From: Escherichia coli
GTDB lineage: Bacteria > Pseudomonadota > Gammaproteobacteria > Enterobacterales > Enterobacteriaceae
Assembly (NCBI RefSeq): GCF_048403405.1
Contig: NZ_CP183129.1
Strand: one strand, 5' to 3'
Length of the DNA: 64,000 nt
Numbering within the stretch: position 1 is the first letter of the stretch; each line of letters starts with the position of its first letter. Below, in pieces: positions 11,418 to 11,580 of the stretch. Made by a program: the position numbers and the translations under genes. The notes below the pieces were generated by a model. That model ran no database searches and had not been told where the DNA came from. It was given only the letters and a program-made list of their open reading frames with translations.

Positions 11418-11580
11418 ATTGAACTCACACCTGTTAGTTGAAATTTTGCATTTAATTTCATGATTTTTCGGAGATTAGTCCCAAATCAGAATTTATTTTA
11501 GCTAACAGGTGTTCACTGGAACTATTCTCAGTTACGCTGGAGAGGTTTACACGTGCGTGTACGTTTCTCCGGAGTAAGTT

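Follow-up and report, generated by a model that had tools for sequence, protein, structure and literature searches.

The inverted repeat upstream of Escherichia coli trhA: a known FabR operator and a putative auxiliary FabR-like box

The FabR operators of fabA and fabB are 18-bp degenerate palindromes; in Escherichia coli MG1655, from which both were taken for the present comparison, they read AGCGTACACGTGTTAGCT (fabA) and GGCGTACAAGTGTACGCT (fabB). At each of these genes, a single box is seen that abuts the −10 element (the operators are directly followed by TATCCT and TATTGT, respectively) and lies beside an activator site for FadR. The gene trhA, formerly yqfA, is the third classical member of the FabR regulon. 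Its primary operator, here called O1, is of the same type as those of fabA and fabB, whereas the arrangement around it differs: no FadR site is recognised at trhA, and two boxes, 78 bp apart and inverted, take the place of one. The second, putative box (O2) shares the ACAnnTGT core and has a half-site, TGTTAGCT in many genera and TGTTAGTT in the window, that equals the right half of fabA's operator; its other half-site is degenerate.

Auxiliary operators that work through DNA looping are familiar from the lac system, with O1 and O3 separated by 92 bp, and from the gal system, where OE and OI co-operate with HU. At trhA, a strong primary operator is likewise combined with a weak upstream element that is insufficient alone, spacings fall into classes related by a helical turn (64–66 and 75–78 bp), and a candidate site for an architectural protein lies in between; the absolute helical phase of the trhA pair cannot be read from its sequence. 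The consensus of the core recognised by IHF is WATCAANNNNTTR, and the trhA spacer contains AATCATGAAATTA, which has one mismatch and a fixed place between the boxes in most species, although it is a consensus match within AT-rich DNA and is missing from the 64–66 bp class. Intrinsic terminators and structured 5′-leader RNAs are the remaining comparators. Like these, the trhA repeat lies between co-oriented genes, but it has a loop of 50–64 nt and lacks a U-tract, covariation and an Rfam match.

Control of trhA by FabR has been studied in several enterobacteria. A phylogenetic-footprinting prediction of yqfA as a FabR target, and FabR binding in vitro, are given at second hand in PMC4804515 and PMC9017321. 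In Salmonella, FabR binds and directly represses yqfA, according to ChIP-chip (with a resolution of about 1.7 kb), ChIP-qPCR and transcriptomics (PMC4804515), and mutation of fabR in Klebsiella derepresses yqfA (PMC11481535). In E. coli, FabR represses trhA through O1, and oleate strengthens this repression (PMC9017321). FabR control of trhA has been disputed between laboratories (PMC4804515, PMC9017321).

The DNA analysed here, referred to as the window, is a stretch of 64,000 nucleotides from an E. coli strain; MG1655 coordinates are obtained by subtracting window coordinates from 3054729, on the minus strand. According to the RefSeq E. coli annotation, yqfB (11106–11417, plus strand) encodes an N4-acetylcytidine amidohydrolase, and trhA (11581–12240, plus strand) a PAQR-family membrane homeostasis protein that the literature places in the FabR regulon. 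The repeat lies within the 163-bp gap between these two genes, while the flanking genes bglA and ygfZ are on the minus strand. The sequence of the region is identical to that of E. coli strain 118UI.

The left arm of the repeat, ACACCTGTTAG (11427–11437, plus strand), and the right arm, CTAACAGGTGT (11502–11512, plus strand), are linked by a reverse-complement match and separated by 64 nt with an A+T content of 75%, as against 50% for the window as a whole. The description in the first-pass annotation, of perfect reverse-complement arms around an AT-rich spacer between yqfB and yqfA, is thus borne out. The repeat can be extended inwards to arms of 18 nt (11427–11444 and 11495–11512), which form 16 Watson–Crick and two G–T pairs. 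Perfect 11-mer inverted repeats with gaps of 20–100 nt occur three times in the window, compared with 1.68 expected from first-order Markov simulations, and at least one is present in 72% of simulations; the version with 18-nt arms is found once, with 0.25 expected and at least one in 10% of simulations. The 11-mer repeat is therefore real, yet as a bare repeat it is statistically unremarkable, and any significance has to come from the conservation of each arm across species. Further copies of the 11-mer, which the annotation had proposed to look for, are absent from the window at up to one mismatch. Of the 5,426 complete E. coli genomes, 5,425 carry the region exactly once. A repetitive or mobile element (REP/BIME, or a MITE with terminal inverted repeats) is ruled out, as the sequence occupies one place in each of these genomes and the 11-mer has no second copy in the window.

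The identity of the right arm is clear. It forms the core of O1 (AGCTAACAGGTGTTCACT, 11500–11517, unstranded), which was located by a primer match, by conservation and by its identity to the fabA and fabB operators at 15 of 18 positions. The primer CAGAATTTATTTTAGCTAgtgGGTGTTCACTGGAAC was used to destroy the FabR box of trhA by mutagenesis (PMC9017321), and it matches window positions 11487–11522 except for the mutated triplet, ACA to GTG, at 11505–11507. This change raises trhA expression and abolishes the response to both fabR deletion and oleate (PMC9017321). The mutation falls inside the right arm, the core of a proven FabR site, the function of which is already known. On a symmetrised FabR matrix, for which the O1 boxes were combined with the fabA and fabB operators, O1 scores 24.1 bits, and the box AGCnnACAnnTGTnnnCT, an 18-bp degenerate palindrome, is present in all 81 compared sequences at no more than two mismatches.

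These 81 sequences comprise the window and 80 orthologous loci, one genome per species, which were chosen solely by their TrhA protein; the sample is therefore unbiased with respect to the intergenic DNA. An architecture of the E. coli type is shared by 39 species, and column conservation refers to the alignment of these. The left arm forms the core of O2 (AACTCACACCTGTTAGTT, 11422–11439, unstranded), which is defined by positional conservation and likeness to the fabA and fabB operators. O2 is inverted relative to O1, lies 78 bp upstream of it and starts 5 nt past the yqfB stop codon (4–5 nt in about 30 species). Across the 39 species, A11427, C11428, G11433, T11434 and G11437 are invariant and T11432 nearly so, whereas divergence is free in the central dinucleotide, the outer flank of O2 and nearly the whole 60-nt spacer. 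In the full set, 37 of 81 species have the core AC[A/G]nnTGT at a distance of 75–78 bp from O1 on its upstream side, and eight more have it at 64–66 bp. For comparison, about 0.17 occurrences would be expected at these seven offsets, and the other 123 offsets hold three in total; as the species are phylogenetically related, such counts overstate independence. The two spacing classes are 11 bp apart, which corresponds to one helical turn.

The resemblance of O2 to FabR operators was assessed in two ways. Upstream of O1, the matrix gives 28 matches of at least 6 bits (about 1.6 expected), 23 of them at 75–78 bp and three at 65–66 bp. Direct comparison with the fabA and fabB operators yields a mean identity of 12.2 of 18 positions for O2, as opposed to 5.4 for the remaining 18-mers of the sequences compared. 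Identities of at least 13/18 are reached in 41% of species, and the 4,779 control windows contain no such case. O2 agrees at 15 of 18 positions in Kluyvera and Citrobacter gillenii and so equals O1 there. On the minus strand, O2 can be written as A(G/A)CTAACAnnYGTWC, an O1-type left half-site with a looser right half. Its good half-site, TGTTAG[C/T]T, reproduces exactly the right half of the operator of fabA; the other half is degenerate, [G/T][A/T]AC[A/G]. In the window, O2 contains the published FabR core ACAnnTGTnnnnT, agrees with the fabA/fabB operators at 13 of 18 positions, and scores 8.2 bits; up to 16 bits are attained in other genera. Matches of 13/18 or better also occur at six other places in the 64-kb window, and the case for O2 consequently rests on positional conservation rather than on the E. 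coli sequence by itself. Together, these data identify the left arm as a putative auxiliary FabR-like box. Of the two identities that the first-pass annotation had offered, a palindrome pair for protein binding is supported: the right arm lies in a validated FabR box and the left arm in a positionally conserved FabR-like one.

O2 appears to be an attribute of trhA rather than of its neighbour. It is retained without an upstream yqfB in Superficieibacter, the Enterobacter cloacae group and Phytobacter. In the two loci that were inspected, those of E. cloacae and Superficieibacter, the gene replacing yqfB is a divergent RpiR/MurR-like regulator (minus strand; L028 203–940 and L006 199–933). Because O2 persists where yqfB has been replaced, it belongs to trhA, and an identity as a yqfB 3′-end signal is rejected. 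In these two loci, the O2-like box is situated within a divergent promoter region.

Position 11429 (plus strand), within the left arm, is polymorphic: A in the window, and G in K-12, two other E. coli and E. albertii. With G, the arm becomes ACGCCTGTTAG, which breaks the 11-mer repeat at the DNA level. The exact 52-mer of the window around the left arm, which carries A, is found in 127 of 5,426 complete E. coli genomes (about 2%), and at least 3,954 of the 5,426 are one base off. Among the 39 species, the base is always a purine (A in 23, G in 16), so that ACG occurs in the O2 of 16 species, whereas ACA is invariant in O1, fabA and fabB. The A allele restores the ACA core and thereby raises the matrix score from 3.5 bits (the K-12-type allele) to 8.2 bits, with the perfect 11-mer repeat as a by-product. 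In E. albertii, O2 has two changes in its core, ACGCCCGT. Lack of conservation in close relatives had been named in the first-pass annotation as grounds for setting the repeat aside; the perfect 11-mer is indeed absent from K-12, but both underlying elements are kept in about 15 genera.

The only invariant features of the AT-rich spacer are TGATT at 11461–65 and A11454. Both fall within the IHF-like core AATCATGAAATTA (11453–11465, minus strand), which was recognised from conservation in the spacer. A core with at most one mismatch is present in 35 of 39 species, nine of them with a perfect match, as compared with 0.5% at other spacer positions and strands. It lies roughly midway between the boxes, about 34 bp away from O2 and 42–43 bp away from O1 (counted to the centre of each box), and is absent from the eight species with 64–66 bp spacing. 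By its match to the core consensus, 11453–11465 qualifies as a candidate IHF site.

Several further conserved elements may relate to transcription initiation. Directly after O2, TTGAAA (11438–11443, plus strand) is conserved; it could be the −35 element of a hypothetical upstream promoter, with GATTTT (11462–67) as its partner at an 18-bp spacing, or else a flank of the box. The T-tract TTTATTTT (11492–11499, plus strand), also conserved, abuts O1 and could represent an UP-like element or contain a −10 element, TATTTT (11494–99). Downstream of O1, conservation and analogy with fabA and fabB mark a nearly invariant block, GGAACTATTCTCAGTTA (11518–11534, plus strand), with a candidate −10 element, TATTCT, at 11523–11528. 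Given that TATCCT and TATTGT immediately follow the fabA and fabB operators, analogy favours TATTCT over TATTTT as the −10 of trhA. The block, GGAAnnATTCTCAGTTA, is nearly invariant in Enterobacteriaceae and recognisable as far as Pantoea, with an invariant inverted repeat of 4 bp, CTGG/TCAG, inside it; either the −10 and start site of trhA or another binding site may lie here. Consensus promoter scans of the E. coli gap and of three orthologous regions gave nothing above shuffled sequences.

In the 5′-UTR, inverted-repeat and folding analysis reveals a strong hairpin, CUGGAGAGG...UUUCUCCGG (11532–11577, plus strand), over the trhA Shine–Dalgarno sequence GGAG (11571–74). Other genera have different local hairpins in the same place, for instance GTTCATCATTATGAAC in Salmonella and GATGAATAATCATC in Enterobacter, which suggests a conserved structure with divergent sequence. 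The hairpin was not recovered by RNAalifold on the species alignment.

With moderate confidence, the repeat is read here as two FabR recognition sequences in opposite orientation, the known O1 and a putative low-affinity auxiliary box, O2, rather than as a stem. FabR, a TetR-family repressor, shuts down trhA from O1 when unsaturated fatty acids are plentiful. O2 would most likely be a site of low intrinsic affinity for a second FabR dimer, and could aid O1 by co-operative occupancy across about seven helical turns, possibly with the help of DNA bending at the conserved IHF-like core. Inverted boxes, an 11-bp step between spacing classes, a weak site that is insufficient alone and a candidate bend site form the pattern expected of co-operation between a primary and an auxiliary operator. 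O2, or O2 together with O1, might also hinder read-through transcription from yqfB as a roadblock, a role proposed because there is no terminator-like site between yqfB and trhA.

A bolder version, regarded as speculative and quite unlikely, would be a three-part repression module in which IHF folds the roughly 78 bp between O2 and O1 so that the FabR dimers touch, and in which position 11429 tunes O2. If so, the response of trhA to unsaturated acyl-thioesters should be sharper than that of fabA and fabB, trhA would be insulated from yqfB read-through, and the natural A/G variation would make the auxiliary box stronger or weaker from one E. coli lineage to another. To our knowledge, there is no earlier case of a FabR operator pair that is looped or assisted by an architectural protein; we also know of no established co-operative looping or tetramerisation for FabR, nor are these usual for TetR-family repressors.

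The picture is complicated by the behaviour of the K-12 promoter. In the K-12 reporters of PMC9017321, the upstream primer lies within yqfB, so the fragments should include O2, and yet mutation of O1 alone removed the entire response to FabR and oleate. This full epistasis means that a K-12-type O2 is insufficient alone and may be non-functional there. The same result is compatible with a different account, on which O2 is conserved and functional for the sake of another protein or an upstream promoter, the likeness to FabR boxes being coincidental and the repeat accidental. Such an account seems rather unlikely, although it would make sense of the many species with ACG instead of the canonical ACA, and of the conservation of TGAAA after the box and of TGATT at 11461–65 with a spacing like that of −35 and −10 elements. 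Against it, AC[AG]nnTGT is kept in the Enterobacter cloacae group even though TTGAAA is lost (GCGGAT/GCGGGT), promoter scans are without a consistent result, and the likeness to the independent fabA and fabB operators lies far above the null. No alternative factor can be named either: FadR, CRP, PhoP and CpxR sites did not fit O2 and its flanks, a weak exclusion made by eye against the consensus sequences. The K-12 data also bear on whether O2 is merely vestigial in E. coli, while working in Kluyvera, Citrobacter, Yokenella and some Enterobacter, with the perfect repeat of this strain being neutral. Besides the epistasis of the O1 mutation, the contrast between 3.5 bits for the K-12-type box and 12–16 bits in those genera, the two core changes of E. 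albertii (ACGCCCGT) and the rarity of the window's 52-mer with A (127 of 5,426 genomes) speak for degeneration. On the other hand, Escherichia has preserved the half-site TGTTAGTT and the IHF-like core as well as the spacing, and the 8.2 bits of the A allele are reached by chance only about 0.06 times per kb. On balance, a vestigial O2 in E. coli is considered unlikely, and a putative weak auxiliary box is preferred.

Pairing of the arms in RNA, the other identity offered by the first-pass annotation, is very improbable. In a yqfB–trhA read-through transcript, they could form an 18-bp stem with a 50-nt AT-rich loop and so influence how the transcript is processed, how stable it is or how the two genes are coupled. 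E. coli RNA does fold in this way, as the stem appears in both the minimum-energy and the centroid structure, with z = −6.0 for a 166-nt region that includes the 5′-UTR hairpin. No terminator-like site separates yqfB from trhA, and position 11429 retains its pairing with U11510 throughout, as A–U in 23 species and G–U in 16, with no other base. Across the 39 species, however, the arms pair at 85.0%, compared with 84.8 ± 0.5% after random exchange of partners between species, and their covariation score is 0.100 versus 0.099 in shuffles. Of the two central pairs, one is broken in 18 of the 39 species and the other in 16, and only 11–13 of the 18 pairs form in some genera. RNAalifold finds no consensus long-range stem on the species alignment. 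The apparent pairing thus derives from the conservation of each arm by itself, without covariation beyond that of the columns, and an RNA stem is not supported. The element moreover persists in the absence of a co-oriented upstream gene, and the stem would be missing from the main trhA mRNA if transcription starts in or after O1. A long-range RNA or cruciform stem is accordingly rejected on pair counts and RNAalifold, despite the E. coli folding. A known RNA family is likewise rejected, as an E-value scan against Rfam returned only sub-threshold chance matches. An intrinsic terminator is rejected too: the loop measures 50–64 nt, the right arm is followed by TCACTGGAAC and has no U-tract, and there is no terminator-like site in 11418–11580 or in the orthologous regions of Klebsiella, Salmonella and Citrobacter. 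The annotation was therefore correct in calling the geometry unusual for a terminator. Pure coincidence, that is, a chance repeat beside a known operator with no second element, is scarcely credible. The 11-mer is not significant in the window and the 18-mer only marginally so, but the core of the left arm is positionally conserved in about 15 genera amid unconserved DNA, and this conservation, together with the matrix scan, effectively refutes it.

The reading of the repeat as O1 plus an auxiliary FabR-like box is of interest because TrhA, a bacterial member of the PAQR family, links membrane energetics to fatty-acid composition. A conserved second box and an IHF-like core would set the regulation of trhA structurally apart from that of fabA and fabB, and might explain strain- or condition-dependent results for trhA, with A/G at 11429 as a natural allele. 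In the FabR/TrhA literature searched, which leaves Feng & Cronan 2011 and McCue 2001 outside, no description of a second trhA box or of the IHF-like core was found; either of these two papers may already describe a second yqfA site. The repeat reflects a duplicated operator sequence, not a new RNA or DNA structure, and is mostly explained by known biology. For the FabR/TrhA field, the finding is a refinement and does not amount to a new kind of system.

Some minor observations concern other parts of the window. Two 18-mers, GACGTACAAGTGTAAGTG (57742–57759) and AGCGTACCCGTGGGAACT (21490–21507), agree with the fabA/fabB FabR operators at 14 of 18 positions. The gap between trhA and ygfZ (12241–12333) contains a terminator-like hairpin of 17 bp on the minus strand (12273–12313), and a weak, sub-threshold Rfam match to naRNA4, which is REP-derived, at 12257–12333. 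This gap is about 119 bp longer in K-12 than in strain 118UI, which would fit a variable insertion of the REP type. Within trhA, an exact direct repeat of 13 nt, TTGGGCTGGTGTT, occurs at 11654–11666 and 11675–11687, 21 nt apart; it encodes a repeated GLV motif in the first transmembrane helix and is probably trivial.
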